From assembly GCA_000091205.1 (NCBI GenBank), contig AP006489.2: a stretch of 64,000 nucleotides of DNA; one strand, given 5' to 3'. Within the stretch, counting starts at the first letter, position 1. Every line of letters starts with the position of its first letter. This DNA is from Cyanidioschyzon merolae (Eukaryota). The translations under genes and the position numbers were made by a program. Below, one piece after another: positions 1 through 53,024 of this stretch. Below the pieces are notes generated by a model, which saw only the letters and a program-made list of their open reading frames with translations, did no database searches and was not told where the DNA came from.

Positions 1-333
1 TTATCTACGCTGCATATGGTACTGGCGTTGCGCGTTTGTTGCACAAGCGCCGAGTCGCCACAGAAGCAAAGGTCGCGTTTCATACTCGGTTGAACAGATC
101 AAGGCAAAGCTGGGTGTTTCCGTGGTTCGATGCGCATACGCTCGTTCCCAGTAAGTACGCAAACTGCCGAATAGCGAGCGTTGAGCGCGTGGCACCCTCT
201 TGCCGCGAATCACACATTTGATGAGGCATTGCACCATGCAGCACCGGACAGCGCGTCGAGCGCACATGTTTGTATCCTAGCGTCCGTTGAAAAAAACGAC
301 CATACCAGAGATATCATATAGGCAAGTGTGTGC

Positions 334-2691
334 TCACGCATGCTCCCGTGCAGCGTCTCCAGGCGGTGGCAGCAGCGGCGCTTTGGCGGCACTCGTGGAA
401 AGCAGCGCGGCAACCACGGTCACGTTGTCTTGAGTCTCTCGCTGTAATGCCTCCGTAACCAGGCGGCGTGCCAACAGACCAGGGACCTGCACAGTGCCTC
501 GGATGATTTTCGCTACTTCACCGACATCCATGACATCCCAGAGACCGTCGGTGGCAAGGATCAGGATATATTCTCGATCGGGCTGCAAATGCTGGATGTA
601 GAGCTCAGGTTCCGCAGTCAAATAGCGTTTGAGCGCAATGTCCCCGATCGCACGCGTAACCAGCGTAAGACCCTCAACTCGAAGCGTACCAGCGCTATCT
701 GCAAGGACCCGTGCGCCTTGTTCTTGAAGACGTGCACGTTCCTGTGAAGACGCTGTACAAGTTTGATCTAAAGTGACGAGGATAGGCACCAAGGCCGTAT
801 CGGGTTGCACTTCAAAGAGCACCGCCCTGGAGTCCCCGATATTTGCCACATATAACGTGCCGCTGTGCACCATCGCCACAAGTGCCGTGCTGCCAACAAG
901 TCCTCGCTTCCCGAGGGCCTGTGATGCGTCGTGCTGGGCGCACCACAGCGACCAGCACATATCCACGAAACAGAGAAGCTCGCGCAGCACTTGTTCGGGG
1001 CGCATTTGCGGGTTACGACCCAGCAGCCTCTGGAGAGCATCTGGAATCAGAGCCGCCGTAAAGTCAGCTGCCTCCACACCACCATGGCCATCGAAAACAC
1101 CCAGTATATGGGAACTGCCCCAACAGGCGAGTGCCGGTCCAGACTGGACAAGCTCTATTGACAATTGCAATGGAGATGCTACCAGGTGACGATCTTCCAT
1201 ACGATCTGGTCCACGACGACCCGACACGGCATACGCCTCCGCTTGCACCCGATCTGAGCGATCTACAGAGGCAGGTGAGCTGCTTCGGTCGAGACGTTGG
1301 CGGAAACCAGCAGGCGCGGCGCTTCCCGTATCGCTAAGCGGGAACGGGCGATGCGCAACGCTCTGAACCAGTTCATGCGCTATGGTGGTGATCTCGTGAG
1401 CGTCCTTTCCAAAGTACGAAGCGGCGAGCGCACTCGGATCGGTTTCAGAAACAAGGTCAGCACCGGTAGCCGCAGAGGCCTGACGAGTGCGCTCCGCTGG
1501 ACCTCTTGGGGTCTGCGATGCGTCCACCTCGTCGTCGCCGATGTGCGTTGCCCACGCAGCGCCAGCCAAGGCGCCCTCTGGGTTCTCCGCCAAGGTAGAA
1601 CGCAGTATCCTGACCGCTTTAAACGAGGAACGCTTCAGCTGGTCAACCAATGCAGCTAGTTCCTTCACCACAGCTGACATGGCAGGCCGTCTCGCAGGGT
1701 CCGCATCCCAACACCTTTCAATGAGTTCGCACAGGCGTTGACCCTCGCGACCTCCAAGTGCATCCACATCCAGTCTGGGTCGCAGGTGCTCGGTAACGAT
1801 AGCCGTTCGTAGCTGCAGCTCGTTGAAGCGTGTCTCCAGAACCGTGTGCAGCTCTGGCTCGGAAAGTTGTCGATCCACGTAAGGCACAGAGGCGGTGACT
1901 ATCTCATTCAGCGTGATACCGAACGCGTAGACATCGGATGCATACGTAGATCCCCAGCCTGAACGCTCCGCGCTCAGAAGCTCCGGCGCCATGTACACGG
2001 TCGTACCAACCATATGAGCAAGACGTCCGGCACTGGGTCCAACGGGCAAAGGCGTGCCTTCGGAATGCAGACGATGCTTTCCTTCGTTAGCTTGTCGAAT
2101 AGCATGCGCGCTTGACTCCCGTATGGATTCCGTGTTTGGTAGCGAGTGCGAGTTGCTCATGATGGCGAGTTCAAAGTCCGCGAGCAGGACGCGATCATCT
2201 TCCAAGAGCAAGTTGGCCGTTTTCACATCGCGGTGGATAACACCAAGCTCGTGCAGGTTCTGCAAGCCGATGGCGAGCTGCAACGCCCACTCGAGTCGCT
2301 GGAGAATGCTATGGGTACCGGGCGTTGTCCGTTTATGGAGGACATCGAAAACGCAGCCCCCAGAGCACCAGGGCGTCACCGTGCAGTAAAACGGGGGCGC
2401 TTCGCATACCGCTAACAGCGGCAGCAGACCCGCCGGCATGCTTACCTTCTCATCGCCACGCTGGACGCAAGTTCTCTGACGTGCACGCACTGTAACATAG
2501 TGCTGCAGGTGAACCTGAGAGTGAAAGCGTTCCAACGCTGCGCTGGATGTGATGCGTGGCTGCCTCACCGCGACCGCCAGACCGTCCAACGTACCGCGGT
2601 ACACAGCGGCACCGCTACCTATAGCCGCTGGGTCAGCGAGTGGTCCCAGCTCAGCGCGAGACACCTGACGAAGTTCGCTTACAATGGACAT
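334..2691 (-). CDS. Protein-kinase-like domain (probably a pseudokinase) fused to a C-terminal PP2C serine/threonine phosphatase; 785 aa, single ORF
   Basis: The N-terminal half has kinase subdomains: a Gly loop IGSGAAVYRG, HRDVKTANLLL, YMAPE. The VAIK lysine is replaced (AVAVRQ) and DFG reads DFE. The C-terminal half has the PP2C motifs LGVFDGHGG, ATDGLWDV and DNVTVV. Confidence 0.8.
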   Translation of the reverse strand: MSIVSELRQVSRAELGPLADPAAIGSGAAVYRGTLDGLAVAVRQPRITSSAALERFHSQVHLQHYVTVRARQRTCVQRGDEKVSMPAGLLPLLAVCEAPPFYCTVTPWCSGGCVFDVLHKRTTPGTHSILQRLEWALQLAIGLQNLHELGVIHRDVKTANLLLEDDRVLLADFELAIMSNSHSLPNTESIRESSAHAIRQANEGKHRLHSEGTPLPVGPSAGRLAHMVGTTVYMAPELLSAERSGWGSTYASDVYAFGITLNEIVTASVPYVDRQLSEPELHTVLETRFNELQLRTAIVTEHLRPRLDVDALGGREGQRLCELIERCWDADPARRPAMSAVVKELAALVDQLKRSSFKAVRILRSTLAENPEGALAGAAWATHIGDDEVDASQTPRGPAERTRQASAATGADLVSETDPSALAASYFGKDAHEITTIAHELVQSVAHRPFPLSDTGSAAPAGFRQRLDRSSSPASVDRSDRVQAEAYAVSGRRGPDRMEDRHLVASPLQLSIELVQSGPALACWGSSHILGVFDGHGGVEAADFTAALIPDALQRLLGRNPQMRPEQVLRELLCFVDMCWSLWCAQHDASQALGKRGLVGSTALVAMVHSGTLYVANIGDSRAVLFEVQPDTALVPILVTLDQTCTASSQERARLQEQGARVLADSAGTLRVEGLTLVTRAIGDIALKRYLTAEPELYIQHLQPDREYILILATDGLWDVMDVGEVAKIIRGTVQVPGLLARRLVTEALQRETQDNVTVVAALLSTSAAKAPLLPPPGDAAREHA

Positions 2692-2752
2692 TTGAAGCGT
2701 CTAGGTAACGCTAGTCACCTAAACTTCCAGCGATCCTGCCAAGAACGTCGGT

Positions 2753-2788
2753 AGGCAGGCAGGCTGGCTGGCTGGCTGGCTAGCTGGT
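2753..2788. repeat. (GGCT)n / (CAGG)n microsatellite
   Basis: The string ggcaggcaggctggctggctggctggctagctgg is visible directly. Confidence 0.9.
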
Positions 2789-3119
2789 AAACCACAACGC
2801 AGCATGCTGCAGTGCAAACGGATTCAAAGGGAACACTGACCTATCTACTCGCTATATCGCTGCGTTTCTATCTTATTCAGACCTTTTTTAGTGTGCAGCC
2901 TTGGCATTCGCACGGAAGCAAGAGGGGTTTACGAAATCCTACCTAGTTTTGCGATTCTCGGTCGTTTTAGCGGAGTTGTGCCTTGGATGCTTTGTCGCTG
3001 GAATTCGTTACGTTAAGGAAATGAAGGTGATTCGCGTCGCCGTCGAGCAAGAGCTCCTTCAATGATCGATATCGGGACTTCATGCATACGTACTAACCTC
3101 TATTTTTCTCCGTTGCTTC

Positions 3120-4677: not shown

Positions 4678-6072
4678 GATGAACTGCGACCCCAGATAAC
4701 GCCTACTCGTTGTTTTCTATCGCTGCGTTAGGTGCCGTAGCAGGTAAACGCAAGCGTCTATCTCGAGCAGCTCAAACGCGAGCAGTACCCACGAGGCATA
4801 GCAGCGGCTTGTGCACCATATCGCAAAAGCGTTTTTTCGTCTGGCAGTTGACGCCCGTGTGCAGCAAATGCGGGTGCGTTCGGCTTCGCACAACAGCTAT
4901 CCATTATTTTCCCAAATAATACATACATGTACAGTAAAATCGCATATGCGTGCCAGAGGTCCTGGTGTGCATGCGCATTTCTCTATGGCATGGGATGGGT
5001 GGCACGAACCGGACATCGCTCCATGTGTGCGCTCTCTCGAAGCATCTGGGTATGCATGCGGCATACCGCTCCAGATGCTCAGGTTCCACCCGCCGTGTTC
5101 ATCATTATCATCATCATTACCGTGAACGTGTTCTATACTTCCCATTGGAGATGATGGTTCGTTCACGTCATCTCCCTGGTGCCAGGCATGCTATGTGCGC
5201 TCACCGCAACGACTACGGCGCCGGTACGGACGCTGCTTGGCGACAGAACAAGCGCACGAACACGCTTCCAGCCGCTGTGGACACAAGCGTTTGGCGCACG
5301 AGCCGGTACGCGCACCCTCCGCAAGGCCTCTGGCATGCTGGTCGGCGTGTTCACGATAGCACCGCGCGGAGTTGCGCAGTGCGAACGAGACAATAGCGAT
5401 ACCAACGTGCTGCCTGCGATGCGCCGATGACATCGCCTACGCAGAGCGGCGACAAAGATGCAGGCGGCATAGCGCAGGCATCATCCAGAAACTATGTCGG
5501 TGGCAACGCAGCGAGCTGTCATCTCTTGCCCGCAACGAATGACTCGCCTTTCGCAAAACAGGTCCGCCGTCATCGATCCCTCCATGCAGCACTCGTGCGC
5601 GCAGGCGTCCGTGGACAACACACTGCAGTCCGGTACAAAAGCCTTGCTCCAAGCGCATCTATCCGCAGAAAAATTGACGCTTCGACTTGCTGCTGTGGAC
5701 GACGATACCACTGCCAGCGCCAGACGCGATGCAAGCGGACGTGACACCCTACAATTGACACCAGGCGCAAGCATGCACCCGTAAGCGATCCGGCTCCATT
5801 GGAAAACACAACCGATATGGCAACACGGTCGATAGCGACGATGCCCCTGCACTCGACGTATCGGCAATCCGGAGGTGCCTACACATCGACGGCAAGCCGG
5901 TCGACCGCTTGCGGCAAGCAGAAGCGCGGTTTCGGCAGGCACTAGGCACACACGATAGGACGTATGAAACGACCAGAATATCCGAGAAGAAGTATAGGGA
6001 ATGTAACTTGGAGGTAGGGTGTTTGATGGATACTTAAGCGTGCACTGAAAACCCCACAAAAAGAAAAGAAAA

Positions 6073-6615: not shown

Positions 6616-9600
6616 GAGGCCTTCGCCCCCGCGGACCGCGACAGTGTTTGTGCTCCAGACCTGGTCAAGTGGTATTGATCGCCTGCGAGGTGTATTTGAC
6701 ACGAGCTGCCCCGAATAGCGGCCTGTAGGCATGGTGAAACAAGCGAACGTATTGGACCGCTACGCCGAGTCGTAACGTATAGAGGAGCTCGTTATGTGCT
6801 CGGCATCGAGAGTTCTGGAATACATGTATCATCATGATCTTTTTGACTTTGTTCGTCGTTGTCTCGCGGAGGTATTGGACAAAGGGAATGAATCCTGTCG
6901 ATAGGGGGAAACGCCGCGGAAAGAATTCATGCTGGGGCTGCTCGCTTGCGAAAAACTGGTTCACTCGCCCAAGTCAGTCATTCTGGCATTCAGCACGTAC
7001 TTGAACCGAGCTTCTCGTGGCGCTGATGCCGAACCTCTTGCACCCAAAACGGAACCTGTCGTTCTCTATTTAGACAAATGTCTGACTGGTTGTCCATACA
7101 TTCCCGTCCGTAATTTCTTTGTGAAAACCTCTCAAAGAAGCCACAGGACGCGACTTTTTCGTACTAAGGATACGAAAAGTGACGAAGAGGCACTGATGGA
7201 CATAGGGAGAAAACGTGCTTCTACGGGACTCCGTCACGCGTTGCACAGCACACGAACACTGTTGTACTGAAACGCAAACGCTTCCCACACAATGGACGAG
7301 TGTTCGTCGCCCTGGACGTTACGCGATTCGAGAAAAACGCTCGACCTGTATACGGTACTCAAAGAGGTTTAGAACGCTGTCCGTACAGAAGATGCAAGCG
7401 AGCATGACAACAATAAAAGTCCTAGCGGCTCTTCAATGGTGCAATCGCCTACATATCACCAGGCGGAGAGGATCAATCGACATCTCATTGTTCCTTGACG
7501 CGTGCTTCGTGGCTTCTCCTTCCTCGGTGCTGCTGTCCTACTCTCGGACAAGGTCGCCGTCCATCAAGTAAAAGCGGTCATGCGGCACCCGACATACGTT
7601 GGCGTTGAGCTGATCTTCGTACCAGCTTCTGCGTTCTGGTGCAATCCAGTCGAAAACAGCTTGTCTAGTGCGAAGCGCCGGTTTTCGCGCCCACGGATCA
7701 ATAGATTGGTCAGTTGCACCCACGACGCTGAAAGCTGCAGGATGCCACTGAGGATCGCGTAGCTTTCTAGTCGAGGAAGGCTCGCCTAGCACTCATCGCC
7801 TCGACGCACCTCGTCAAGCAAATGTGCGTAAGTTTCTCGGACACACGGCATCGAGCTGTCCTTTTTCCACTCGAATTTTCTGATGAAATTTCCCTGCGAC
7901 AGTACAACGGATATTCGTTAGAAAGCACGCAACTCGATCTGATGTAATGATCAGAGGTTTGGAGGCACACTTCCCAGCATACCTTCAGACGTGGACGCGT
8001 CACGTTGTCAATTGAGGTAAACGATACAGCACAGGTGTGAAAAATTATTGAACAAGACTCAAAAAGCAAATCCATTTGCAGGTCAATGTCGAGCGATTCA
8101 TGAGGTCTGTCTCGTGAGCGTTGTACGCTCAACTCGCTGGTCCAAGAAACTGAAGACTACTTCAAGCGGATTCCTTAGGTGTCTATAGAGGCGAGTGGCG
8201 AGCTGGTGATGAAGCGCTCGAAATGGCAGCGAGTTCGGAAGAAAAGTCATTCCAACAGCGACAGTCGCTTCAGACCGTCCAAGCACATCCTAGTGTGCTC
8301 GGTGCCGGGCCGACGGACGTCACCTGCAGAGCATGGTTCAGACGTCATGCCTGCCTTGCTTGCATCCTGCGCTACTGCGTTTCCCAGAGGAGAGCCATCC
8401 CGGGGGGAATCGGATTTCCTTCCAGCATCCGAGCGTCTTGGCCTGACCGAGCGTCCACTGGATATGGTCACCAGTTGTCGAGTCAAGACCCATGAGATCA
8501 CCGTTGACATTTGTTTGTAGTAGTGCATGGACTCCACAGTAGGTCATGGTAGGTCTCTGTGAGCAAGCATGAAGCATTCGAACAAGATCGTGATGAGTAT
8601 GGCCGTACATCGTTCATGGCTCCTGGGCTACCGCGAGGACCTGGAAAGAGGTTCGCATTGGCGGTCAGGATCGACGGAATATCCAACTGAATGCACTCTG
8701 TGAAGTATAGACCTGAGTTCAGCACCGACACTCATTCTCATCCGTCCTAAGTAGCTGGACGTACGTAGAGAGGTTTCGTGGCGAGCATGCGTTTCGAGTC
8801 CAAGAACATCGTTGCCGTCTTCGCAGCTCTGATTCAAGAGGATAGAGCCAACGACGTGCATAGAACGCCAATGATGCTGCTCAACTTCTCCAAGGCTCTC
8901 TCTGATCGAGATTCGAGTCTGATGGACGCAAGAAGCCACACCAGCTACTGCAGTGAATGCATTGTGACCATCTCGACGCCCTGAGTATCGTAACGGGCAG
9001 AGACGGGGGATGCGCTGTGCGCCTCGTTCAGAGCGTTCACGAGCATCCACAGAGCTCATACCGCAAAATTTTGGCGATAGTGGACGAAACCGTGTTGTCG
9101 TCGCCGACATTGTCGGTTGTGCGGAGGCAACAAGCGTGCATTCACCAATATCTTCAAAGAGCTGGAAAAACTGAAGCCCATAACTCGCGTCCTTGGGTTG
9201 CAGTCTACGGCGCCAGACATGCCGCTGTGCGCAAGGGCCGTACTCGTGCCTCTTCCGCCAGAGCGTACAACGAATTCAGGAATCGATTCTATACGATTTT
9301 CATCGATGATATCGTGATTCTATCCACGCATCACGAGCAAGCGTGCACAATGAAACAGGTGGAGAGGCAGCGCTTGCAACAGAGCCGGATGGATAACGTG
9401 GTGGTGTACCGTACGCTGACCGAATGCCAGATAGCGAGACGATCGAAAAAGAGCGGCTTGCTGGTATGTGATTCAACCAGAAAACACACGCGGACGCATT
9501 TCCTGTACCGAGACTTGACCACCACGATCAACCTTCGGAAACGTCTTGCGCTTCCACAGCATCTGGCGGCTTTTTTTCGACAAAGCTTTCAAGCGAATCG

Positions 9601-10483
9601 TTTGGTACTCTGTGTGGGCATTGGGCTAAAATGCGCAAGTCCTTCGATGAAAACATCAGTGCTCAGGAGCGAGGGCATTGAATCGTCGCTTGGACCACTG
9701 AACTGGGGTTTTACGCTTCAGCTACCCAGCAAGGCTGCTACTGGGCTCACAGACACCTGGAACACCTGTCCTTGGCCATCGATGAACGATATTGGTGTTC
9801 CATTATTCGATATTGCAGCGTGTGCACGCTTGAAACCAACGCTGCATTGTTTCGATATAGACAGGATTACCTAGGCGAACTGACCAGACTCTGTACTTAC
9901 AGCATCCACAAAGATCTGCATCGCAACGGCAGCTGCTGGTATGGACCGGACACCTGAATAGCGACGACGGCTCCCTAAACCGATGCCGTGCAGTGCTTAA
10001 CAGGGATGCTACTGGACCAGCGCTGTCACCGTCACGAACAAAGTTTGAAGACGTGAATCGTTTCGACGCTTGTCACGGAGTCGTTGCCGGTCGGTACCAT
10101 CGTTGTCGTCGTTCGCACAGACTTGGTGTTGATCAGAGTTCGCGCATGCTCCGATTGTGCCCGTGGAGGACTCGCCACATACGATGCAATTTCTGAGTGC
10201 AGATGTCATCAGTCCAGCCCATGGATATTGCAATGGTTTTTCATCGCGCACTGACCAGCCGATGAACAAGCGACACACTTCTGGACGTGAGCGCAGGGTC
10301 TCCAGCGAGCAACCGAACAGCTGACGCTCGGGCGCCGTCCAGCGCACTGCCACCAACGGTCATCTGGAGACGACGGCGTTTCCCGCAAATATTGCTGACT
10401 GTTGGAGCGGTCGTAGACCTTGCGAGCCAGTGTGTTTCATTTGCGGCTTTGCAGGGCGCTCTCTGCTTCTACACCAGCAGCAA

Positions 10484-15343: not shown

Positions 15344-16228
15344 CTATAAACGATGCCGGTGCATCTTCAAGCGCCGTTTGGCAAGTTCCATACCCCACGG
15401 CCGATGCGTACACCAGAAACCATCGCCGGGTGCCCGCGGGATAACATGCACGTGCACGTGGGGCACGCTCTGACCAGCGCAACGCCCGTTATTGACGCCG
15501 ATGTTGTATCCGAAACGCTCCTGGGAGGAAACCGACGCTTCTACGCGCGTCACTGGTTCCTCTGTCGGTTCTCGTGCGCTCATTCGTTCAGAAAACGTTA
15601 GTCGGCTCGCGTCGGAAACCCGTCGGGTGAGGTAGACTTCACGAAGCACGACCTGGGCGACGTGGCGTGCCTGCGTAAACAACTCCGCGAGTTCCGACTC
15701 TGTGAGCGCGTCCATACTCGAAACGTGTCTCCGCGATATGACTAAACAGTGCCCGAGCGTCACAGGTGTCCGGTCCAGAATCGTAAGCGTTCGCGCACTC
15801 GCGTGCAGTGCAACGCAGTTCTCCAGAGTCAGGCAGCAGAACACACAGTCGACTTTCGAGGAGGAGTAGCTGTCTTCGGTGCTTAAGTCAATGTCGCCGC
15901 CGTCCGCTTGGTGCTGCAGTGCAACACGAATTCGGTGGACAAGGTTTTCATCGAGCAGCGGCCGCGGTTTCGTTCGGTCCCGCATCAGTCTTCCTAGACG
16001 CGAACAAACTGGCGGCGTGCTGTCGACCTCTGAACCAGTCGCAGCTGGCAGCGCCAAGCGCTGGAGATTTGCGCCGCAGCCCGGAATCGCACGAGATCCC
16101 CAGGCATGCGCTGGGCGTCTGCAGCTGGAGCGCAAGTCTGGGCTCCACGGAACGTTCAAGGCACTGGGGTTGCATGTGGTGGTGGTGGTGGTGGTGGTGG
16201 TTACCGACTGGTAGCAGGCGTGCAACAA
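15344..16228 (-). CDS. HIT-family (histidine triad) nucleotide hydrolase; N-terminal 130 aa of the ORF probably not coding, or separated by an intron
   Basis: Motifs DCVFCC...TPVTLGHCLVISRRHV...FGYNIGVNNGRCAGQSVPHVHVHVIPR match the HIT signature (CxFC start, HxHxHxx). An internal insertion of about 35 aa is present, and the (ACC)n tract at 16176..16200 encodes poly-Thr in the extended frame. Confidence 0.5.
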   Translation of the reverse strand: MLHACYQSVTTTTTTTTTCNPSALNVPWSPDLRSSCRRPAHAWGSRAIPGCGANLQRLALPAATGSEVDSTPPVCSRLGRLMRDRTKPRPLLDENLVHRIRVALQHQADGGDIDLSTEDSYSSSKVDCVFCCLTLENCVALHASARTLTILDRTPVTLGHCLVISRRHVSSMDALTESELAELFTQARHVAQVVLREVYLTRRVSDASRLTFSERMSAREPTEEPVTRVEASVSSQERFGYNIGVNNGRCAGQSVPHVHVHVIPRAPGDGFWCTHRPWGMELAKRRLKMHRHRL

Positions 16229-16500
16229 GTCCCGCGCCTTTCAGGTATGAATCATGTTGGAAGCGTGTCACGCTGCGTCACGCTTGAATGGACAGACGAT
16301 TCATGATGCGTCTTCAAGTGCGAACGATGGCACTCCTGCTCTGGCGTATAGCACGAGATCGGAATCACGATGCAATGTATTGTACAGATTGTAGACGAGT
16401 TGCTTCTAGGATGTATACGCTTTACGGAACAGTGCAAGGAGGACTGCAAGAATGCTTCAGGTCAGTCATAAAACAGTACGCAGATGATTTAGGAACTCTG

Positions 16501-16530
16501 AAAGAAAGAAAGAAAGAAAGAAAGAAAGAA
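16501..16530. repeat. (AAAG)n microsatellite; (TGG)n at 16176..16200 and a poly-G run at 16651..16661 lie nearby
   Basis: The runs are visible directly. Confidence 0.9.
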
Positions 16531-16949
16531 GTGTGTGCGATCGGCACCAGAAACTGGTATTGTGAAAGTGTGCCTGCGGTCAGTGGTAGAAGTAGCAGAA
16601 AACGACCCATTGATCACTCCAGGGAAAGCAAACGATACGATAGTAGACGCCGGGGGGGGGGGGTCTCTGTTTCTCAAAAGCTTGTTCTTTTTGTCCTGGT
16701 AACACGGGGCTCTGGTCACTAAAAAGCCCTAGTTCACGCACGGCTATCTTCCACCGAAATCGGAACTAGAGCGTTCCTGGAAAGTCACGACCCGTATGAA
16801 GCACGGACGTCGCTTTGCTTTTCCAGTTAATGAGACTCTCTTCGGACGAAACAGTCGTAGCGTCTATGGGTATTCGCGGAGCAGGGATCCCGTCGTAGGT
16901 ATACACGATCGTACTCGAAGAGAACGAGGGAATCATCATCTGTTCTAGG

Positions 16950-17350
16950 TGCAGTGGATTCATTTGGCAGGTCAGCTTTGGCTCGTAGAGAGGGTTCGTA
17001 CATCAGCACAAACCACTTTTTCGAAGACCTGAAGACTTCTCCCTGACGTCTGCCGACATGTTTCTATTGGAAAATTGTGGTATTTTACCGCTCTCTTTGC
17101 ATTCGAGCCTTTGCCGATTCTATCAGGGTAGAGCTGCTTTTCAATCCTGCGTACGCTTCGTGGTTGAATCCCGTTGAAGGAGTCGTTTCTATCGTGAAAC
17201 GCCATGGTCGCTGCACTGGGCGAATTGATGAAGCGTTCAGCATACGACGACACACGGGCGCACATCTCGACTTTCTTCCGCAAGTCCTTCTCGCCTCGCG
17301 AAGGTCCGAACCTGCGGCTTGCAACAGGTCCGTTCATTCGACGAAATAAA
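16950..17350 (+). mobile_element. Tc1/mariner (IS630-like DDE) transposase remnant
   Basis: ORF 17077..17349 reads ...AFADSIRVELLFNPAYASWLNPVEGVVSIVKR, matching the C-terminal signature of DDE_3 transposases (H-x-A...L-x-F-PPYSPDLNPIE-x-W). An upstream LLENCGILP is a possible frameshifted QxDNAxxH remnant. Confidence 0.45.
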
Positions 17351-17510
17351 GAATCCCATGGAGCGGTATGTGCACGCAAGTCGAGGATCCTGAAGCGCTG
17401 TTACCGCCGGATGCCGAAAGAAAACGACAAAATCCTCTTCTCGCCGACCATGGAGCGAAGCAGACCAAATGACGAAAAAGAAGAAGAACGGTTGAGATAG
17501 GCCAGAAAAC

Positions 17511-17807
17511 GTGTCCGCCCGACGGGACGATCACGAGACTTTGGTGACACCGAGGACACGAGTTGAACGAAGCCCTGCATTGGCGCGTACCACCAGAGGC
17601 AGTTCACGCGAGACGTTCACGAACCGAGGCGTTAACGCCACCATTAATATCAGACGTTGTGCGGTGCGGAATACGAGACCTGAGAAGTTTAGGCGATCTA
17701 ACTTTGTGGAGCAGCCTCTCAGGGTCGAAGTGTGCATGGAGAAGCTGAAGCCGATAGCACGCGCCCCGTCGAAAAAGGCTGAGAGACGTCTCCACATCAG
17801 GGGTTAG
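17511..17807 (+). mobile_element. TnpB/Fanzor-like C-terminal fragment
   Basis: ...TFTNRGVNATINIRRCAVRNTRPEKFRRSNFVEQPLRVEVCMEKLKPIARAPSKKAERRL aligns with 51624..51887 (MEFMNLDFNAAINIRRSAILKTGPAELTRANFVGQPVKVEFYKEQPKPISLEQSKKARRRL) and with 31676..31308 on the minus strand. Confidence 0.5.
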
Positions 17808-18812
17808 ATATTCAGTCTATGGATGTCAAAATCATAGCGTGTAATGGCGAAACAATCTTGTCGGCATTGGCGAGTTGGGATGAGGATCCGGTTCAGGGTA
17901 CGTTCAGCTCGACAACGCTGGACGAGTAACGGAACGTGTAAGTGAGCGCCAGTTTTCGCGGTGTATTCGGGTTATGCGGACGTGGACGCGCCACAAAGCT
18001 CACATGCACGTCGTCCCGTGCGCTATGATGCAGCAAAAGCACCATGTAAGGATGTCAACGGCGGACTAGGTCTGTCGCCGTACACTCTTCTGTGCAGGTT
18101 CGACTTGTGGCGGCGTCTCCGCTACGACAAATCAGTGACCGATTCGACTCCGTAGATCGGCACTGGTAACGTAGCTTTTGAAACAGGCCACTTTCTCAGA
18201 CCATCATGATGTACTGAGCGTTGACGAGCCGTCAGCGTGCCCACTCGAAATGAGGGACCAGTCAACCGGGCACCATGGCATCCACGCGACGCATTCCGCA
18301 TCGTGCCGTATTCCTGGCGGCGTTGGGCGTTCAGACACCTACACGACTTCATGTGCAGCGGTTTTACATATTCGTTTCGCGGATATGACGCACTGGAGTC
18401 GTCTGAGCTGCGTGCAGGTTCCGGTCGTCAGTGCCGCCTGACTCGAATTCAACAGTCCAGTGGTCTCGTACTAGGGAGCGCGTCCGCGCTCGTCTCGTGA
18501 CGACCTGCGGCATACGCAACGTCGACGTCGAGGGAAAAGCCCCAAACAAAGCTGCTACTTCAGGGCTCTGATATCGTGGCGCGCGGAAAGAAACGATATG
18601 AGTTTCACCATACGCCCTTGACCCTGGTAGGATTCCTGGTACCAGCACAACTAGCGACAGCATGCGTAGTTGCACGATTCGTAGCAACTGTTGCTCGAAC
18701 AGCATTCATCGTCGTCGAACGCCCGGTAGTAGTCACCGCAGCAGCACTCAGCGTAGTCGTTGTAGCAGGATATATAGTTGTGTGCTCGGCATCGGAAAAT
18801 CGGCGTGTGCTG

Positions 18813-26916: not shown

Positions 26917-28701
26917 TGTTCCCCTACAGACTACACCGCCAGGGCCTGCGGCAACAAACGCGCTGTAGAGGCAGCGCGTTTCTCCACGGCGATATGCGAT
27001 ATTTGCCGCCGCGTCCACGCACTGCACCATTGCGTACCGGGAGGCGATGCCTCGAACTGACTGTGCTCGACGAGTGTGCGGTTGATATCGGTTGCTGGAG
27101 GCACAAATTTCGAATTATCGGGCGACAGGTCCACGATCCTACTCCAGGCAAGTGCGACTCGGCTTGTCCGCCTGGTCATTGTGGCCCAGAGCGCGAGCGA
27201 GCGCCACCTTCCGGCGCCTGTGAGGCTGCCTCGGCCCCGGTACCACGACGTATGCAAGTTCCCGAAACGAGGTCCTCTATGCTACTGGTTGTCCACGTGA
27301 TCAGTCGGTGCCTGTGACTGAGCCTTCTCGATGACATTCGCTCTCGTCGATCATATTTTCGTGCTTCGCAGCGGCGCGTGCAGGCGAACGCTGCGATCCG
27401 GTGCGGCAACCTTGCAAGCGCGAATGCCCTGCTCTTGATAATTCGATGCTTTGCACGCGCAAACGGGTTTGAGTCACAACTATCTGCATAGGATCATGAA
27501 AGACGAACCGGTGCAATGAGGCATTCAGGAACGGGCGCACGGGCCTCGGAGTACCGGCTCTGAGCGGGCGATGTCGACGAGCGCGTCGTCAATACGCGAT
27601 TGCGACCAACTTGGGGCCGCAGCAAGCATCAGCGGCCTCTCTGGCAACGCATCGACAACGAGACGAGAGACTGCTCACGTTAGACGTGCAACCTGATTCC
27701 ATCGAGGCCATGGGAATCGCCAGACTCGATACAGGGTTGCGGGGCACGGCCGTCGATTCGCCTGCAACGACATACGACGCTGTTGCTGTTGCCCGGGACC
27801 ATGCCATCTTCAGAGCGAGCGATCGACTTTGAGCGGGGCCCTCACATCCGACCAGCGAACAACGTGTCAAACTCTTGGACTGGAACGCTCGTTCTTCGTA
27901 GCAGGTAGAGCGAAGCGCGATGATAACCCATCTCTAACCATAAAGTACCCTGCTCGCGTGCACGTCGTTGTCGCTTTCCTCGATGGCTTCCCGAACGCAA
28001 CACGCAAGCGTCTTGCAGCATGCATCTCCGTAGAACGTCGCTATGTCGCGAACCGACACGCACAAGGGTATAGGAAAGCTGTTTAGCCGCTGTGCTGCAT
28101 CTGTTCCAGCGGTTTGAGCGCTACGGCGGACGCTCCAAGCACGAACTCGGCGCACGATAGAACGTACAAGACGACCAGTGCATCTGGATGGGAGTATCAG
28201 CAATGCAGCTTGGAGGCAGGGTGCAACAACATCATGGACGCTTTCCCGAAAGCCTATTCCCATCCGAATCGCACTCTGGAGTCCGTGATCGAAGGCAACG
28301 TTTTGCGATCGGACGCGCAGATCCTCAATCGCCGCGCATGCATGCTCGTGTTGCCATGCCGCGCAAGTGCATTGCGCTGGGGCGGCGAGGCGCGCTTCTG
28401 TAACTGTGGCACATTTGTCTAATACAGGCGACGCGCCCCCGCAGCAGCCGCAGCGACTGCATATCGGGTCGAGCGGGCGTGCAGGCATACGCCACGAACG
28501 CTGGCGCATGCTCGCGTGACTGCGGGCATTTTTCAAGGTCGACTGTCGGAACGTACCGTAGTGGAGCTGCACACGGGCGTACCTCTCACTTGTTTGAGTT
28601 AACTGTTTGAAAACATAGCGCGTAATTGATCAGAGAGGGGTTCGGAGAGAAAGAGGGGTGAAACGCTGTCCTGGGCGCTGAATTATTCGCAGCACGGACG
28701 A

Positions 28702-31311: not shown

Positions 31312-31676
31312 TTCAGTGTTACATTATTATCCGATACCAGTGTAGACTTCAAAGAAGCGTTTGTGATGTGTGATCTGTGAAACCGAAAAATGTCCTTTCC
31401 CATCGAGGGTAAATGTAGATCCACTTGCAGACGCGAGCCAGCCTTTTCTGACATGCCGACTGCTATCGGTTTAGGTTTCTCCTTGCAGACTTCGAGTATT
31501 AGACGCTGCACCATGGAGTTCGCTTGCGTCATCTCCTCGGATCTCGTCTTCAGCGTCACACAGTTTCTGGTATTCTCAGCAGCGTTGAAGTTTCGATTCA
31601 CGAACTCCATGTATTTCTCGCTGCTGCTCGTACTCATCAATGGAAGCATTCCCCGAACTTTTGCCCTCCGAGCCAC
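31308..31676 (-). mobile_element. TnpB/Fanzor-like C-terminal fragment (minus strand), abutting copy A
   Basis: MARRAKVRGMLPLMSTSSSEKYMEFVNRNFNAAENTRNC...QANSMVQRLILEVCKEKPKPIAVGMSEKAGSRLQV is colinear and roughly half identical to 51624..51887 (MEWRAKVPGLLALVSTSGGKKRMEFMNLDFNAAINIRRS...). Confidence 0.5.
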
Positions 31677-32095
31677 TTGCGTCTTGTCATTGTCCCGTGG
31701 GGCGAAGAGCTTTGCTCGCCCAGCGCCCGCTTCTTCTTCTTCTTCTTCGTTACTCGGCTATCTTCGCTCGACGGTCGAAGAGAAGGGCATGTATTCCCTT
31801 TGTTTCTGGCCTCCTGGATCCTCGCTTTCCATGTCGACACCTTTCCCTTGGATTTTTATTTCTTCAAATGAATGCACTTTGAATGTTTCTACTATAAAAG
31901 GCTAAAAAGCATTTGATGCCACGCACCTGGGCATGGAGCACAACTGAGCTGAAAGACCACAGCGAAGCAGCATCATCCTCCAGGCTGCTGGAACGCCGCT
32001 CTAGCCTTCAACACCTCATCTTCCTAGACGCTGCTTTTGCGGCAACCGCGGCTGCCGCATGACCTAACCATAGCTCATGTTCACTACCTCTCCGA

Positions 32096-33493
32096 ATGCC
32101 GAAGAATGGTCTCTCTTTAGGGAAAGTAGAAGCGGTTGCTGCTAGTCTGGACGTTCCCGAGGGCTACCACTGGCCGCACGAGGCCTTCCGTTCCCTCGAC
32201 GTTTTAACTCGGTGCCCGATCTGTGGGGAACACTTCCGCGCGCCTGTGCTGCTTGAGTGTGGCCACAGTTTCTGCAGCGAATGCATTCGTCGTGCGCTTG
32301 TTTATCGAAGCGAGTGCCCGCAGTGTCGAGCGCCCGCCAGTGCAGGGCAACTTCGTCGAAACCGTTTGGTTCAGGACGTTACAACCGCGTGGCAACAAGC
32401 ACGCGAATGCGTGCTAACCCGCTTTTCACCACAAGAGCACGCTGGGAATACGGAATGCCGGAGCTCGAAATTGGAAGCTTCGACTGAGAGCGGCCTCACG
32501 GTTCGAGAAAGAACCGAAGCAGCTTGCCCGGTGCGAGCGGCAGCGCTGACCGCACAAGTTGCGACTAGAGGTCGCGCTCGGAGCGCTCCTGTCCCGCCAG
32601 ACGAGCATACCGCAGCGGTATCAGCTGTTTGGACAGACAGACAACACCAGAATTGGGATGAAGCGGGTGTCTGTTGTGGAAATTGCGAGGAGTCGGCTTC
32701 CTCTGCAGTGTCAATGTCGAAGCGCACCGAACCCAGTCATCGATTCGAAAGAAGCGCTGAACGGGCGGGAGCCCAGCCTCCGAACGGAGGACTGAGCGGC
32801 ATTGCGGCTGTACCGCAGCCGCTTCCAGTGTTTCAGAAAACAGACGACATCTACGCGGAGGATTGGTCGGAGGCTGCTCCAACTCGGACGCCCGCCGCGT
32901 TGCCTGGTGAAGCTGCACGGGCAATGGAGCCGCGCCCACGAAACGATGCAGAGTCGACGGCGACAAGCGGTCACGCGTCGTTCACTCGACGGGCCTCGTG
33001 CGAGAGGATCCAGCAAAGAGACCATACCAAGTATGTCGAGTGCCCCATTTGCAATCGTGCATACCCGCCGGCTTTTATCCAGGTCCACGTGAATGAATGC
33101 CTGGATCAACTGGATGCCGTAGAGGCGAGCGGCTTTCCGGAAGCCGGATCTCGGGCTTTGGCCAAAGCCACCAACACGCTCGAAGACGAATATCCGATGC
33201 GGAAGATTCCCGAGGTTTGGTACGACGGCCTGACTGAACGTCGTCTCCGGGAAATGATTCGGGCGCTCGGCATGAAAGCTCCACCAGCGTGGCTCCGGAA
33301 TCGTCGTGGCCTCATTTACCTGCACCGCGAGTACGTCATTCGACATAATGCGGAGTGCGATGTGGAGCCGGTGACCGCGCGCAAACAGCGACGTAACATC
33401 TGCAGAGAGGTCGAGGAACTCGCCTGGTTCCAGATCGAGTCTGCGAGGCGACCCACACGACCAGAGGCAGCGCGTTCTTCGAATGCAACCTGA
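32096..33493 (+). CDS. RAD18: RAD18-type E3 ubiquitin ligase (RING + UBZ4 zinc finger + SAP domain)
   Basis: RING: CPICGEHFRAPVLLECGHSFCSECIRRALVYRSECPQCRAP. UBZ4: VECPICNRAYPPAFIQVHVNECLD. SAP: LTERRLREMIRALGMKAPPAWLRNRRGLIYLHREYVIRHNAECD (compare human QEFVHMYNAQCD). The domain order matches RAD18. Confidence 0.85.
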   Translation: MPKNGLSLGKVEAVAASLDVPEGYHWPHEAFRSLDVLTRCPICGEHFRAPVLLECGHSFCSECIRRALVYRSECPQCRAPASAGQLRRNRLVQDVTTAWQQARECVLTRFSPQEHAGNTECRSSKLEASTESGLTVRERTEAACPVRAAALTAQVATRGRARSAPVPPDEHTAAVSAVWTDRQHQNWDEAGVCCGNCEESASSAVSMSKRTEPSHRFERSAERAGAQPPNGGLSGIAAVPQPLPVFQKTDDIYAEDWSEAAPTRTPAALPGEAARAMEPRPRNDAESTATSGHASFTRRASCERIQQRDHTKYVECPICNRAYPPAFIQVHVNECLDQLDAVEASGFPEAGSRALAKATNTLEDEYPMRKIPEVWYDGLTERRLREMIRALGMKAPPAWLRNRRGLIYLHREYVIRHNAECDVEPVTARKQRRNICREVEELAWFQIESARRPTRPEAARSSNAT

Positions 33494-48718: not shown

Positions 48719-49704
48719 CTGTCATGTCCGCCTGCCAACGGATTACAGGAGCGCGCTCCTTTGACGGGCGATTTGCTTTGCGTTTTCTCTCGGCGATCAA
48801 AAGTTTACTTTGACCATGCATCCCAGATTGCGGGATGCGTATTGGCTTTCGGAAAAGCGTCCTTAGGGCTGCGCAACACTACCAAGTTCCATGACGTAGA
48901 CTTGCATTCGGATGTACTGGACGTTTAGTACGTTCTATCGTGTGCCGAGTGCCTGCATTACTGCACCAGCCGTATCGCATATGCCTCTGTTACGGATCCA
49001 GCACGGAGACGGAACGGCTTTGCCATAGAACAGAGGGCGTCGGCTCGAGGTATGATTCATTCAACATGGAATCGGGATTCATTAGCCTGCTGGGAGCGTG
49101 CAAGCTGCGCAGACACACATGCTGCCTGCGACAGCGCGAAGCGACATACGAGGCGGATACCACGCCGACCAGGGCGATGCCCAGACGCAGCCTGTCCGCT
49201 GGCAGTCCCAGATTACACTGCGTTCCGGATGAGCTGCTGACATTTCCCTACAGGACTCGCCACTCGCGAGGGCATCGTGCACTAGCCCGATAGACTCGTC
49301 CGGCTCGCGGAACTTTCTGCCTAGAAAGAAGAGTTTCGAGGATACGGAAAGCGTTTCCCCCTCCTAGCGTTCTTCGTAGTGGGGGCGGGAAATCTTTATC
49401 TCGTTGCTGGTGAATCTTGAGTCTCTGTTCTTTGCCCTGAATAGCGCGCTCGATACGTGCGCCTTTATATTTGGCAGGAATTGAACATGTCCTGCTTCTC
49501 ATCGTTGAAGAGAAGCGCAATCCTGATCATTATCGTGTTGCAGCAAGGTGCAATGTGGATTTGCATGAAAGTCGTCGCAAAGTATAGTTGTGTATCTCAA
49601 TTGGGTTTCAATCTTTACATTTGTGGATTCAAGTGCTTTTTCGCTGTGTATAACAAAAACGTTCAAAGTGCGTTCTCTTTTGCAAAAGGAAAGAAAGGAA
49701 AGTT

Positions 49705-51887
49705 ATGGAAGTAGAAGTGGAGGATCCTGCAGGCCTGGTGTCGGCGGCTGCCGCAGAGAACAAAAAACATTTCCGGCACCATAGGAACGGGAAAAGACGA
49801 AGAATCAACGGGAACGAGGGAGGGCGGACGTCAGACGCCGCACGAAAAACGACACTACGACGAGATGTTCGTGAAAGCTTTTCTTTCAAGCCGTATCGAG
49901 GATCCCTACAAGCAACCGTTGCAAGAGGTCATCAGAAACCCTGTCGAATCATATTCCAGGAGTGCTCAAATCTCCTGTTTAGGACTGATGCATATGACGA
50001 GGGAGATGTATCGCGGCGTGACGCGCATAGAAAGAGTCGAGGTTCCGGAGGAATTTTCTAACGAGACCTTCATCCGCCACTTGATGCTTGGCACGGGGGA
50101 AACCTCGAAGAGAAATGAGCGAGCGCATGACGTACAGGAAAATGACACCGAATTCCGCTTCAACGGTACTCGATACAAGTATGACGGGGACATTCACACC
50201 TACGGGGCGATCTAGTACCCCAGGATCCTGAGGAACCCCATGATCGTAAACTTCGACCGCATCATGATACGCTCCGTCTTTGCACTGTAACCGGGCCTCT
50301 CTCGCAAAGGGATATGGGCTATCGTCGATGGCATCACGAACGATAGTGACAATGAAGAGGAGACCGAATTCGCCGAAAAGAAGGCATCACCCGGGAGCAT
50401 GAATGAAGCTTCTGTGCTCCGTGCGGCTCTTCGAGAGCACCGTACGGGTTGGCGTTAGCCAATCCTGCAGCAAAGGTATCAGAGATGAAAAGAGATGCTA
50501 TCCCCTCATCCTGCGCTATTTCGTGTTCCTGAACCGAGAGCTCGAACGCAAGGCGGAGATGGAGCTGGATGTGGAAGCAAGTGAAAAGTCGGTGAAACGG
50601 AAGGCTGCGCTTCTGAAGAGGCGCTTCAACCTCGTTCTGGAATGCAAAAGCAAGTCGCGCTTTGTGGCTAGCGATTCCAGATTCCTTCGCTGCTCCAAGG
50701 AGATCTGTCCGAAATTCGATGTTCATAACAAGGAATTCACGGGAGAAAAACGGTGAGACTCATCGGAAGAATATCTTCGATTTCAAACGTCTCAAAACGA
50801 GCAAGAAAAAGGTATTCACGGTGACGATCGACAGCGATGGGGTATCCATATGTGTACATTATCGGCGGTTGAAGGCGGATCGTCCAATTGTGCCTTCGGC
50901 TTCGCCCGCGGCGAGGCACGAAGAAAACACGGAGGCGGGCCCTGGATCGTATAACCCCCAGAAGAACGACATCGTGGCAGGCGCAGACCCCGGGAACACG
51001 TATATCATAACCATCGCAGTGCCCAGGGGTGCGAAAGATGGTATTGCTGGCGGCTTGCGTCAGAAAGCCATGAGTCTTTTAAAGCACTCAAAAGCGAGAT
51101 ATTACCGAGAGTCTAGGATAATTCATGCGAGGAAAAAAGTGTGACGTAGAATGCAGCCGGGAAGGCGCACCTGGAGGCGATCAGCCAGGTGACGGGCCGC
51201 CGAGCGGACTCTGAAGCTTTTCAGGAATTCATGAAAACTCATGCTGCTCACTAGGAGGAGCTGTGGAGAGATTACGCAAAGCTCCGGTTGGCTCGTCAGC
51301 GTATGAATCTCTACTGTGGGAAGCAACATGCGTTCGCCAACTTTTTCAATGAGTTGAGCGCCCTGGAGGAGGACGAGAGTCAAACGCTCGTAGTAGCATA
51401 CGAAGCAGGGCGCTCGATGAATCAAAAACGGAGCATACCCGCTCCGTAAACCACAGCGTACAAGGAGTGTGCACAGTGTTTTGTCATAATACCGATAGAT
51501 GAGTTCCGAACGTCATATACGGACCATGAACGGGGGTATACACTTCACCGGGTCGAGATGGAAAAGTGCCAGAGGAGCCCTGTGAAGATATAGAAAAGTA
51601 AGGAGAGCTGACAGAAGAGCAAAATGGAATGGAGGGCGAAAGTTCCAGGGCTACTTGCACTGGTGAGTACAAGCGGTGGCAAGAAACGTATGGAGTTTAT
51701 GAATCTTGACTTTAACGCCGCTATCAATATCAGACGAAGTGCGATTCTGAAGACGGGACCTGCAGAGCTGACGAGAGCCAACTTTGTGGGGCAGCCAGTC
51801 AAAGTCGAGTTTTACAAGGAACAGCCGAAGCCGATATCACTCGAGCAGTCGAAAAAGGCTCGGAGGCGTCTACGCGTCGGTGTATAG
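49705..51887 (+). pseudogene. Fuller-length TnpB/Fanzor-like RuvC nuclease gene, frameshifted (at least 4 frame changes)
   Basis: On one strand, in canonical order: a basic NLS-like N-terminus (KKHFRHHRNGKRRRINGNEGGR, ORF 49705..); Ruv[21 protein letters not shown] (Asp codon at 50986; compare Cas12/TnpB GIDRGERNLIYITVI); a RuvC-II-like block ...EEDESQTLVVAYEAGRS (about 51370); a zinc-ribbon remnant KECAQCFVIIPIDEFRTSYT (about 51480..51516); and RuvC-III MEFMNLDFNAAINIRRS (Asp codon at 51708). The GC content is visibly lower than in flanking host genes. Confidence 0.55.
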
Positions 51888-53024
51888 ACATATACGCTCT
51901 GGGTCTCACGGAAGCAAATGCAACGATGCGCTGTCCATTGGCGATACGCTGCACGCGTTTCAGGCAACGAAGGTCGCTGCTGTGAGTCACGGCAGCATCG
52001 ATGCCCACGAGAAAGGCAGTTCGATGCAACAACCTCACACCACACAGGATCGTTCTCTGCGGACAAGGCGAATCGTTCACACTGCTGCTCGGTGCCGGAT
52101 TGGCTTCAGATGCCGGCGATGATCTCTCCTCGTTCATCAGCGTCGACAGCAATCCGAGTCGCCCCGAGTCCGGGCACTGAATCGATGCAACTGTGGCGCA
52201 ACCATGTCAGATACTGTGTCGCGTTAGCCGTGAAGCCCGAACATGCAGTCATGTATGTGATGGTCTGCATCCAGTGACTGCAGCACTGCATCGGGGCGCT
52301 TTCGGGGCGTGCACAGGTGCCTCTGGGTCGATGATCCTGGCGAGCGGCGAGACGTCCGCGAGCATCCTCGCAGCGAAACAATGGTGATAGATGCGTCATC
52401 CTCGCATGGCTGCGTCCTCGCGAATAGCGTCGAGCGCGCTTGCCATGAGGCTTACCAGCATCGACCGAACAGACCAAAATCCCCAGAGGAAGGTACGGTC
52501 AAGGGCCCACGGGAAGCATTGGTGGTAGAATGCGGGCTGATGATTGATTCCCTCGATGCCGATACGCATCGCACGCGGAGGAACTCCATATCAAATGAAA
52601 CGATCCAAGTTTTCGTCACGTGAGCGAAAAGTGCAACAGGCTCGCATCGTCGGGCATACACGCTCAAGTTTGCGTCGCTTCCTGGTGTCATGAACAACAG
52701 CGTTCGTATGCGTTTTCTGAGATTGCTTCTTTTTCCTCTCTCATATTTCCGGCTTCAAACTACGTCGGTCTCTATTGTCCATCCAGGCTCTGTTGCCAGC
52801 AGTCGAATGACGTTCTTAGCCGCGGAAACGTTCCGATTTCGCTGCTTGCCGCTGTTGTCGACGCATTTCAAGTAACGGCGGTCGTTGCGATCCATGGTTC
52901 GATGGCCAGTTTCATCTTCTCTCTACACAGCCTCGGAGCGCCTTTTGTGGCGGCCAAACTTGGCAGTGATCAGGCGTTCTCGAATGTCCGCTAAACCTCC
53001 TGCTCCTCGTACGGGCGCCGCTCT

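Follow-up and report, generated by a model that had tools for sequence, protein, structure and literature searches.

Fanzor1 genes have been known since 2013 as passengers of Tc1/mariner elements, as the first-pass annotation of the DNA described here correctly stated, and the Mariner/Tc1 transposons that carry them include PUl-1 and PUl-2 from Pythium ultimum, PGv-1 from Phaeocystis globosa virus, and HMa-1 (PMC3627910). Mariner/Tc1-Fanzor1c associations also appear in a broad survey (PMC10530073). Cyanidioschyzon merolae has a Fanzor1 family of its own, CMe-1A, with a 3169-bp consensus and about 150 copies, each about 80% identical to that consensus; the 5' 635 bp of CMe-1A are common to the element TE-N2_CMe (Bao and Jurka, 2013, Mobile DNA 4:12, PMC3627910). 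Here we analyzed a 64-kb stretch of C. merolae DNA (the window), in which a unit at 16277–17846 on the plus strand, termed c17, consists of a transposase remnant of the IS630/Tc1/mariner (ITm) type followed by a Fanzor1 remnant of the CMe-1 lineage. We regard it as reasonably probable that this unit is a fossil composite DNA transposon, in which a DD34E transposase gene was followed on the same strand by a CMe-1-lineage Fanzor1.

Of the described elements, PUl-1 offers the most detailed comparison. As in c17, a short spacer separates its transposase from the Fanzor1 downstream, and both genes lie on one strand. The transposases are of one superfamily (c17 against the PUl-1 transposase, blastp E=4e-4), and the Fanzor families are homologous: in hhalign, a profile of intact CMe-1 homologues matched the Pythium PUl-1 Fanzor1 with 85.8% probability (E=5.4e-6) across the RuvC-II/'DE[FY]RTS' region. 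PUl-1 has 24-bp terminal inverted repeats (TIRs), TA target-site duplications (TSDs), intact open reading frames (ORFs) and, by our own count from its sequence, DD45E spacing, whereas the C. merolae relics are pseudogenes with DD34E spacing and no detectable TIR or TSD, and the Fanzor part of c17 amounts to about 150 codons. Compared with CMe-1A, the Fanzor part of c17 is a copy of the family (71–78% nucleotide identity to the consensus, 44% at the amino acid level), and the window holds a near full-length copy as well (c50, below). Unlike CMe-1A, the CMe-1 sequence of c17 is a short form that has lost its interior and is joined to the end of a DD34E transposase remnant; its 3' tail is different, and it belongs to an older stratum. 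The locus therefore adds a case and not a concept, Mariner/Tc1-borne Fanzor1 being already documented in oomycetes, algal viruses and animals. Three aspects are new as far as the literature was searched: the relics connect the Fanzor1 lineage of C. merolae with a transposase of the ITm type, a divergent Fanzor pseudogene underlies the annotated gene CMG116C, and a short-form derivative exists.

The window is part of chromosome 7 of C. merolae 10D, with a GC content of 0.555, and eight of its long ORFs are identical to annotated C. merolae 10D proteins within BAM79630–BAM79646, including CYME_CMG116C and CYME_CMG130C. C. merolae is an intron-poor red alga. The CMe-1A consensus and the 734-amino-acid CMe-1 protein were taken from the supplement of PMC3627910 and mapped onto the window with blastn and tblastn. 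The features of c17 are as follows.

16277–17846, plus strand: whole composite unit c17, collinear with positions 9003–10446 of the metagenomic locus L020, which carries the chromosome 11 copy (blastn, global and end alignments).
16379–17302, plus strand: IS630/Tc1/mariner-type (DDE_3) transposase pseudogene (tblastn with the stitched protein, Pfam, NCBIfam).
16500–16530, no strand: (GAAA)n microsatellite, 7.8 copies with 100% match (Tandem Repeats Finder), within the N-terminal half of the transposase remnant.
16652–16663, no strand: run of 12 G, read from the sequence, also within the N-terminal half of the transposase remnant.
16829–16831, plus strand: first catalytic Asp position, replaced by Asn (codon AAT, motif FPVNET); D is retained on chromosome 11 (SVDHT) (codons read).
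17070–17072, plus strand: second catalytic Asp position, replaced by Glu (codon GAA, motif FLLENC); D is retained on chromosome 11 (LLDT) (codons read).
17176–17178, plus strand: catalytic Glu, motif NPVE, 35 codons after the second Asp position.
17283–17367, plus strand: piece homologous to the part of CMe-1A that immediately precedes the Fanzor start codon (consensus about 828–905), forming the junction with the transposase part; its exact left limit is uncertain (MAFFT alignment).
17368–17501, plus strand: Fanzor1 N-terminus remnant, CMe-1 amino acids 1 to about 45 (blastn, tblastn).
17502–17807, plus strand: Fanzor1 C-terminus remnant, CMe-1 amino acids 629–728, with the stop codon TAG at 17805–17807 (tblastn, blastn, codons read).
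17808–17846, plus strand: 3' tail, also present in the chromosome 11 copy and, with weaker similarity, in the CMe-1 copies c31 and c50; homology between copies ends here (alignment).

The c17 transposase is a DD34E IS630/Tc1/mariner-type remnant. It comprises about 308 codons, is essentially full length, and is interrupted by at least three frameshifts and several stops. Against the Pfam profile DDE_3 (PF13358, curated cut-off 28.6 bits), frame +1 alone scored 36.3 bits (E=6.4e-09), the frameshift-corrected translation 44.8 bits (E=1.5e-11), and the longer stitch covering 16379–17302 scored 43.6 bits (E=3.4e-11), all above the cut-off. The NCBIfam IS630 transposase profile (NF033545) was matched with 41.5 bits (E=1.1e-10), far under its bacterial equivalog cut-off of 100 bits. 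The peptide AFADSIRVELLFNPAYASWLNPVEGVVSIVKR is encoded on the plus strand within ORF 17077..17349, and the C-terminal motif '...LLF.P.Y...LNPVE' is that of IS630/Tc1 DD34E transposases (PF13358, NF033545). From the second Asp position at 17070 to the Glu at 17176 there are 35 codons when one frameshift is allowed, which is DD34E spacing. The remnant departs from these transposases in its catalytic triad, which reads N/E/E, in its broken reading frame, and in that neither TIRs nor a TA TSD were found. At the N-terminus, the matches to HTH_23 (E=0.14) and to the TyrR helix-turn-helix (HTH) domain (E=0.082) were not significant, and an HTH-like pattern at 16379–16490 was recognized by eye only. 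With the stitched transposase as query, a word-indexed protein search returned no match and a search of the PDB no sequence-level relative. A profile built from three transposase remnants matched only ORFs of the two known c17-type loci, and a metagenome scan with the c17 transposase found only a 98% identical orthologous locus (L004).

ORF 17511..17807 is a genuine Fanzor1 remnant of the published family CMe-1A. In tblastn the CMe-1 protein matched c17 over amino acids 629–728 with 44% identity (E=1.3e-19), and also over amino acids 1–21, while blastn aligned consensus 916–969 with 17378–17431 at 78% and consensus 2906–3091 with 17615–17800 at 70.6% over 187 nt. The same ORF has paralogues within the window at 51633–51878 and 31709–31422 (tblastn). 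Only amino acids 1–45 and 629–728 are kept in c17; the RuvC-I region (including the Asp and GxDPG), the RuvC-II region and the [TS][TS]/zinc-finger regions are deleted. In what is left, the RuvC-III 'RD' motif is mutated to RG (CGA GGC, 17625–17630), giving NRGVNATINI against NRDFNAAINI in the consensus. DNA derived from CMe-1A begins at about 17283–17333, right after the end of the transposase remnant and near consensus position 828, to which about 17283–17314 corresponds, so that the spacer between the two is less than 100 nt (about 70 nt).

Both identifications had been made in the first-pass annotation, which described a DD34E transposase of the Tc1/mariner type next to a Fanzor C-terminal fragment, and both hold on the profile and tblastn evidence just given, the DDE_3 match included. 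Its geometry needs revision: it began the transposase at 16950, about 570 nt downstream of the actual start near 16379, it left a gap of about 200 nt between the remnants, and it took the (GAAA)7.8 microsatellite and the 12-G run, which lie inside the transposase remnant, for its flanks. The AT-richer island that it noted is real and modest, with a GC content of 0.504 against 0.555 for the window.

The whole unit has a paralogue on another chromosome. When the stitched c17 transposase was compared by tblastn with metagenomic loci retrieved through CMe-1A, it matched L014/L015, 9 kb from the CMe-1A copy there; the longer locus from the same place is L020. Here too, a C-terminal piece of CMe-1 (amino acids 616–729) comes after the transposase remnant and lies in the same orientation. 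By blastn, 16342–17225 of c17 corresponds to L020 9066–9916 (66% over 902 nt) and 17576–17791 to 10177–10392 (73% over 216 nt), and the global alignment shows 65.4% identity over 1424 nt. The alignment crosses the transposase/Fanzor junction, the junction segment alone being marginal (p=0.058), and the 5' untranslated region (UTR) piece of the chromosome 11 copy matches consensus 868–897 (p<=0.002). The chromosome 11 transposase keeps D/D/E and is still frameshifted and interrupted by stops. Compared by blastn, the flanks of the two units have no homology, and on each side the homology between the units stops where the element does and not at some arbitrary position. The second unit sits between the genes for acetyl-CoA synthetase and seryl-tRNA synthetase (SerRS). 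Its neighbors in L020 cluster with CMK096C (BAM80484) and SerRS (BAM80485), and a DLH protein is identical to BAM80483; the locus is therefore on chromosome 11. L020 comes from the same metagenome sample as L004, so both copies coexist in C. merolae-like genomes. In both c17-type copies the CMe-1A homology starts near consensus 828, whereas in the solo copy c31 it reaches back to about 793. This shared junction points to a single joining event and a later duplication.

A second tandem of the same order and orientation is present in the window at 7.3–9.6 kb, and consists of the following features.

7303–7759, plus strand: very divergent DDE_3 transposase remnant, termed c7 (tblastn, Pfam, NCBIfam).
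7926–9589, plus strand: divergent, stop-ridden Fanzor1 pseudogene, nearly full length (tblastn with CMe-1).

The c7 remnant scored 24.6 bits against DDE_3 (E=2.6e-5), which is under the cut-off, and E=1.3e-6 against the NCBIfam IS630 profile. Its triad is kept (D at 7315–7317, D at 7547–7549, E at 7652–7654), and the distance from 7547 to 7652 is 35 codons, again DD34E spacing, in a sequence that is frameshifted and carries stops. The Fanzor1 pseudogene begins 166 nt downstream on the same strand; CMe-1 amino acids 131–558 matched 7926–9176 with 24% identity (E=3e-13) and amino acids 491–697 matched 8966–9589 with 31% identity (E=9e-20). Both modules of this tandem are about equally remote from their c17/CMe-1 counterparts, with 34% amino acid identity for the transposase and 24–31% for Fanzor, a pattern that would be expected if the pair had diverged while linked. 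Each of the two DDE_3 remnants in the 64-kb window thus has a Fanzor sequence immediately downstream in the same orientation. The annotated gene CMG116C (BAM79630, 'hypothetical protein', 305 amino acids; ORF 8957–9874, plus strand) is an ORF that has survived over the C-terminal half of this Fanzor1 pseudogene. It aligns with CMe-1 amino acids 491–697 (31% identity), retains 'YRDLTTTINLRK' and probably does not represent a genuine host gene.

These two findings bear on the alternative that two unrelated dead fragments came to lie side by side by chance. The window is rich in transposable-element debris and most of the Fanzor copies stand alone, as such an accident would have it. The linkage nevertheless does not look accidental, because the chromosome 11 paralogue is collinear with c17 and the c7 tandem repeats the arrangement, and we consider an accidental adjacency very improbable.

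The recurrence of the arrangement could also come about if CMe-1-type Fanzor elements favored insertion immediately behind this transposase gene, perhaps at a target motif in the Tc1-like 3' region, so that the linkage would recur without the two ever having formed one mobile unit. TnpB and Fanzor elements have sequence-specific target requirements. A role of TnpB/Fanzor in homing is discussed in PMC10530073, and the c7-type and CMe-1-type Fanzor lineages hold the same relative position. Against a target preference, c17 and the chromosome 11 copy share their junction and are collinear across it, so that the linkage arose once and was then copied, and among about ten other CMe-1A insertions that we examined none lies next to a transposase sequence. 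We therefore judge this explanation to be improbable, only slightly less so than chance.

The Fanzor part of c17 can be compared with two further CMe-1 copies in the window.

31388–31957, minus strand: c31, solo copy of the CMe-1 short form (blastn, tblastn, alignment).
48799–51935, plus strand: c50, near full-length CMe-1A pseudogene (blastn).

In c31, positions 31957–31808 and 31680–31517 match CMe-1A consensus 790–936 and 2828–2994, and the 5' UTR is kept back to about consensus 793, further than in c17. The two copies are collinear through the deletion junction (17333–17390 and 17409–17781 of c17 against 31872–31816 and 31814–31439 of c31, the first of these segments at 74%, E=2.5e-5), and therefore descend from one internally deleted short form, which comprises part of the 5' UTR together with some 45 codons from the N-terminus and some 100 from the C-terminus. 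That c31 shares the deletion junction of c17 suggests that the internally deleted derivative was itself copied. The copy c50 (48799–51881 against consensus 9–3092) has 79.5% identity to the consensus; the RuvC-I and [TS][TS]/zinc-finger regions missing from c17 are present in it, as they are in the family consensus. Used as a query, the stitched c50 translation retrieved 155 homologues with 50–62% identity from hot-spring metagenomes. The 3' ends of c17, c31 and c50 have a common tail that is unlike the tail of the published CMe-1A consensus. Four copies (c17, its chromosome 11 paralogue, c31 and c50) show 57–70% identity to standard CMe-1A copies and to one another across the 200 nt at the 3' end, whereas standard CMe-1A copies are 80–84% alike, and the four copies therefore represent older strata than the main CMe-1A burst.

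The protein and RNA signatures of the Fanzor part were probed with several profile and structure methods. Pfam returned no match for the 98-amino-acid Fanzor ORF 17511..17807 or for the stitched c50 protein, sequence and profile searches of the PDB with the Fanzor proteins returned none either, and PF07282 (OrfB_Zn_ribbon/Cas12f1-like TNB) reached only E=0.51 on the CMe-1 consensus. An AlphaFold2 model of an intact CMe-1 homologue, computed from a shallow alignment, had a predicted local distance difference test score (pLDDT) of 32.8. An omega-RNA-like structure was sought in ten 3' ends with RNAalifold, which gave a weak consensus (–9.7 kcal/mol) with little covariation, and an Rfam search for a guide (omega) RNA at the 3' end gave no match.

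Whether c17 was ever a mobile unit of its own can be weighed from these data. The composite with the nuclease as cargo, which the first-pass annotation had suggested, is supported by the paralogue with unrelated flanks on chromosome 11 and by the independent tandem at 7.3–9.6 kb, and we infer that the pair moved as a unit by means of its Tc1-like transposase. It is likewise fairly likely that DD34E transposons of the Tc1/IS630 type, with Fanzor1 as cargo, were once present in C. merolae.

Several observations weigh against a composite transposon. The TA-flanked inverted repeats that the first-pass annotation had proposed to look for around the unit were searched for, and none was significant: at 15.5–19 kb and at 6–10.5 kb, repeat searches and blastn-short gave only matches at chance level for TIRs and TSDs, and end-versus-end local alignments with shuffle controls on c17 and L020 found no significant TIRs (p>0.1). 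The boundaries deduced for c17 and for the L020 copy are placed with a precision of about 20 nt, and no pair of flanking TA dinucleotides brackets them. At its 3' end the unit shows the CMe-1-type terminus that the solo copies c31 and c50 also have, and a separate Tc1-like 3' TIR is not visible. Unlinked copies, named by the first-pass annotation as a sign against a composite, do occur: c31 and c50 have no adjoining transposase, and five independent metagenomic CMe-1A loci have no adjoining DDE_3 gene or remnant; in the chromosome 11 copy the two parts are linked. CMe-1A itself was published as an element with no TIRs, no determined TSD and no transposase, its classification being given as unknown (PMC3627910). 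In addition, the c17-type unit was found at two loci only, and the Fanzor part of such a unit may never have been full length while linked, in which case it would have been non-functional cargo from the start.

In the main rival explanation, a CMe-1 short form and an unrelated Tc1-like element inserted next to or into each other in an intergenic region tolerant of transposable elements, one perhaps truncating the other, and were later copied passively to chromosome 11 by segmental duplication or ectopic repair, without ever forming one transposon. The lack of TIRs or a TSD around the pair, the plain CMe-1-type 3' end, and the occurrence of the same deletion derivative as a solo copy in c31 all agree with such a history, as does the clustering of transposable-element debris in certain intergenic stretches of the C. 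merolae genome, such as the TE-N2_CMe fragments at 5934–6018 and 28049–28311. Passive copying would not lead one to expect that the two copies cease to be homologous just where the element ends, as they do on either side, and the c7 tandem, with its same order and strand, would have to be a coincidence. By a rough and purely inferential estimate, the chance that both DDE_3 remnants lie at most 200 nt upstream of, and co-oriented with, a Fanzor sequence is <1e-3. We consider adjacent or nested insertion unlikely on balance, and prefer the composite transposon.

Under the composite-transposon reading, a series of steps can be proposed. On the knowledge of the family, a DDE transposase in the live element would have excised the unit and re-inserted it by cut-and-paste. 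The Fanzor1 cargo would have been an RNA-guided RuvC nuclease and, by analogy with TnpB, probably aided persistence by cutting empty donor sites, which would then have been repaired from the transposon-bearing copy. The tandem at c7 would be an old, nearly complete relic of a transposon carrying Fanzor1. A later derivative, in which Fanzor had already been cut to the short form, would survive in two copies that have diverged from each other, c17 and the unit on chromosome 11. This composite would have been copied to at least one other chromosome, followed by neutral decay to the present inter-copy identity of about 65%. The marks of such decay in c17 would be the frameshifts and stops, the D to N and D to E changes in the triad, the RD to RG change, and the microsatellite and G-run that would have grown inside the transposase. 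Today c17 has no function, and all of the copies here are dead.

More tentatively, and with less confidence than for the unit itself, CMe-1A as a whole may possibly descend from a DD34E Tc1/mariner-type transposon with Fanzor1 cargo. The relics at 7.3–9.6 kb, at 16.3–17.85 kb and on chromosome 11 would then be the last traces of the autonomous ancestor, the family having lost the transposase and had its 5' end replaced by TE-N2_CMe. The relics give a first hint of the transposase superfamily that was once associated with the unclassified CMe-1A. They further show the annotated gene CMG116C to be a decayed Fanzor fragment, and an internally deleted Fanzor short form to have persisted and been copied. 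Because none of the copies here is functional, they have no direct use for genome-editing discovery.

Some smaller observations concern the ends of the unit and of CMe-1A. The sequence CACGCT at 16277–16282 and its reverse complement AGCGTG at 17841–17846 lie at the points where homology with the chromosome 11 copy ends. The pair is imperfectly mirrored in that copy (CACGCTA / CAACGATA) and has no statistical support; it is suggestive of eroded termini. In the CMe-1A consensus, positions 5–14 and 3098–3107 form an exact 10-nt inverted match, with GACAAAACGT near the 5' end and ACGTTTTGTC overlapping the Fanzor stop codon. The match extends by eye to about 20 of 24 nt and has p ~0.007 against shuffles, uncorrected for about 30 tests; in the window copies it was not significant. 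Downstream of ACGTTTTGTC, the consensus continues for about 60 nt, which include a GC hairpin and a T-run. By eye, the 5' end of CMe-1A seemed to form a TIR with the 3' tails of the copies in the window; this pairing failed the shuffle test and was dropped.

Upstream of the accepted junction, 17247–17270 (plus strand) holds a 23-nt match (21 identities) to CMe-1A consensus 682–704; its p against shuffles is ~0.008, and the chromosome 11 copy has nothing equivalent. Shared ancestry of the CMe-1A 5' region and the transposase 3' end could account for it, as could chance; when consensus 636–828 was compared with the transposase 3' end for a common origin, this was the sole match. The idea of a Tc1-like element inside a longer CMe-1A 5' region was rejected, as there is no CMe-1A homology upstream of c17 or of the chromosome 11 copy. 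In the two minus-strand fragments at 5934–6018 and 28049–28311, similarity to the CMe-1A consensus (87% and 75% identity, respectively) is confined to its initial 250 nt, which lie within the part assigned to the separate element TE-N2_CMe (PMC3627910).

Directly abutting the left end of the composite is the minus-strand ORF 15344–16228, which by eye resembles a HIT (histidine-triad) protein (HVHVHVIP motif); a (GTG)8.7 microsatellite at 16176–16201 lies in its 5' coding part and encodes a run of threonines. Further away, ORF 334–2691 (minus strand, 785 amino acids) appears by eye to fuse an N-terminal protein kinase to a C-terminal PP2C-type phosphatase domain, and a weak tblastn match of the Fanzor fragment at 1398–1601, within this ORF, was set aside as spurious. 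The solo copy c31 lies about 140 bp upstream of the start of a RING-finger gene at 32096. The copy c50 contains several stops and frameshifts and retains NLDFNAAINIRR, and its 3' tail departs from the published consensus past position 3092. Finally, in some metagenomic CMe-1A copies (L007 1506–1809, L001 8540–8618 and relatives) the segment corresponding to consensus 2117–2196 is tandemly repeated up to five times, and in the predicted proteins (for example P0001 and P0006) this appears as repeated 'KHEEKKEA...QEV.DND' blocks just upstream of the RuvC-I motif.

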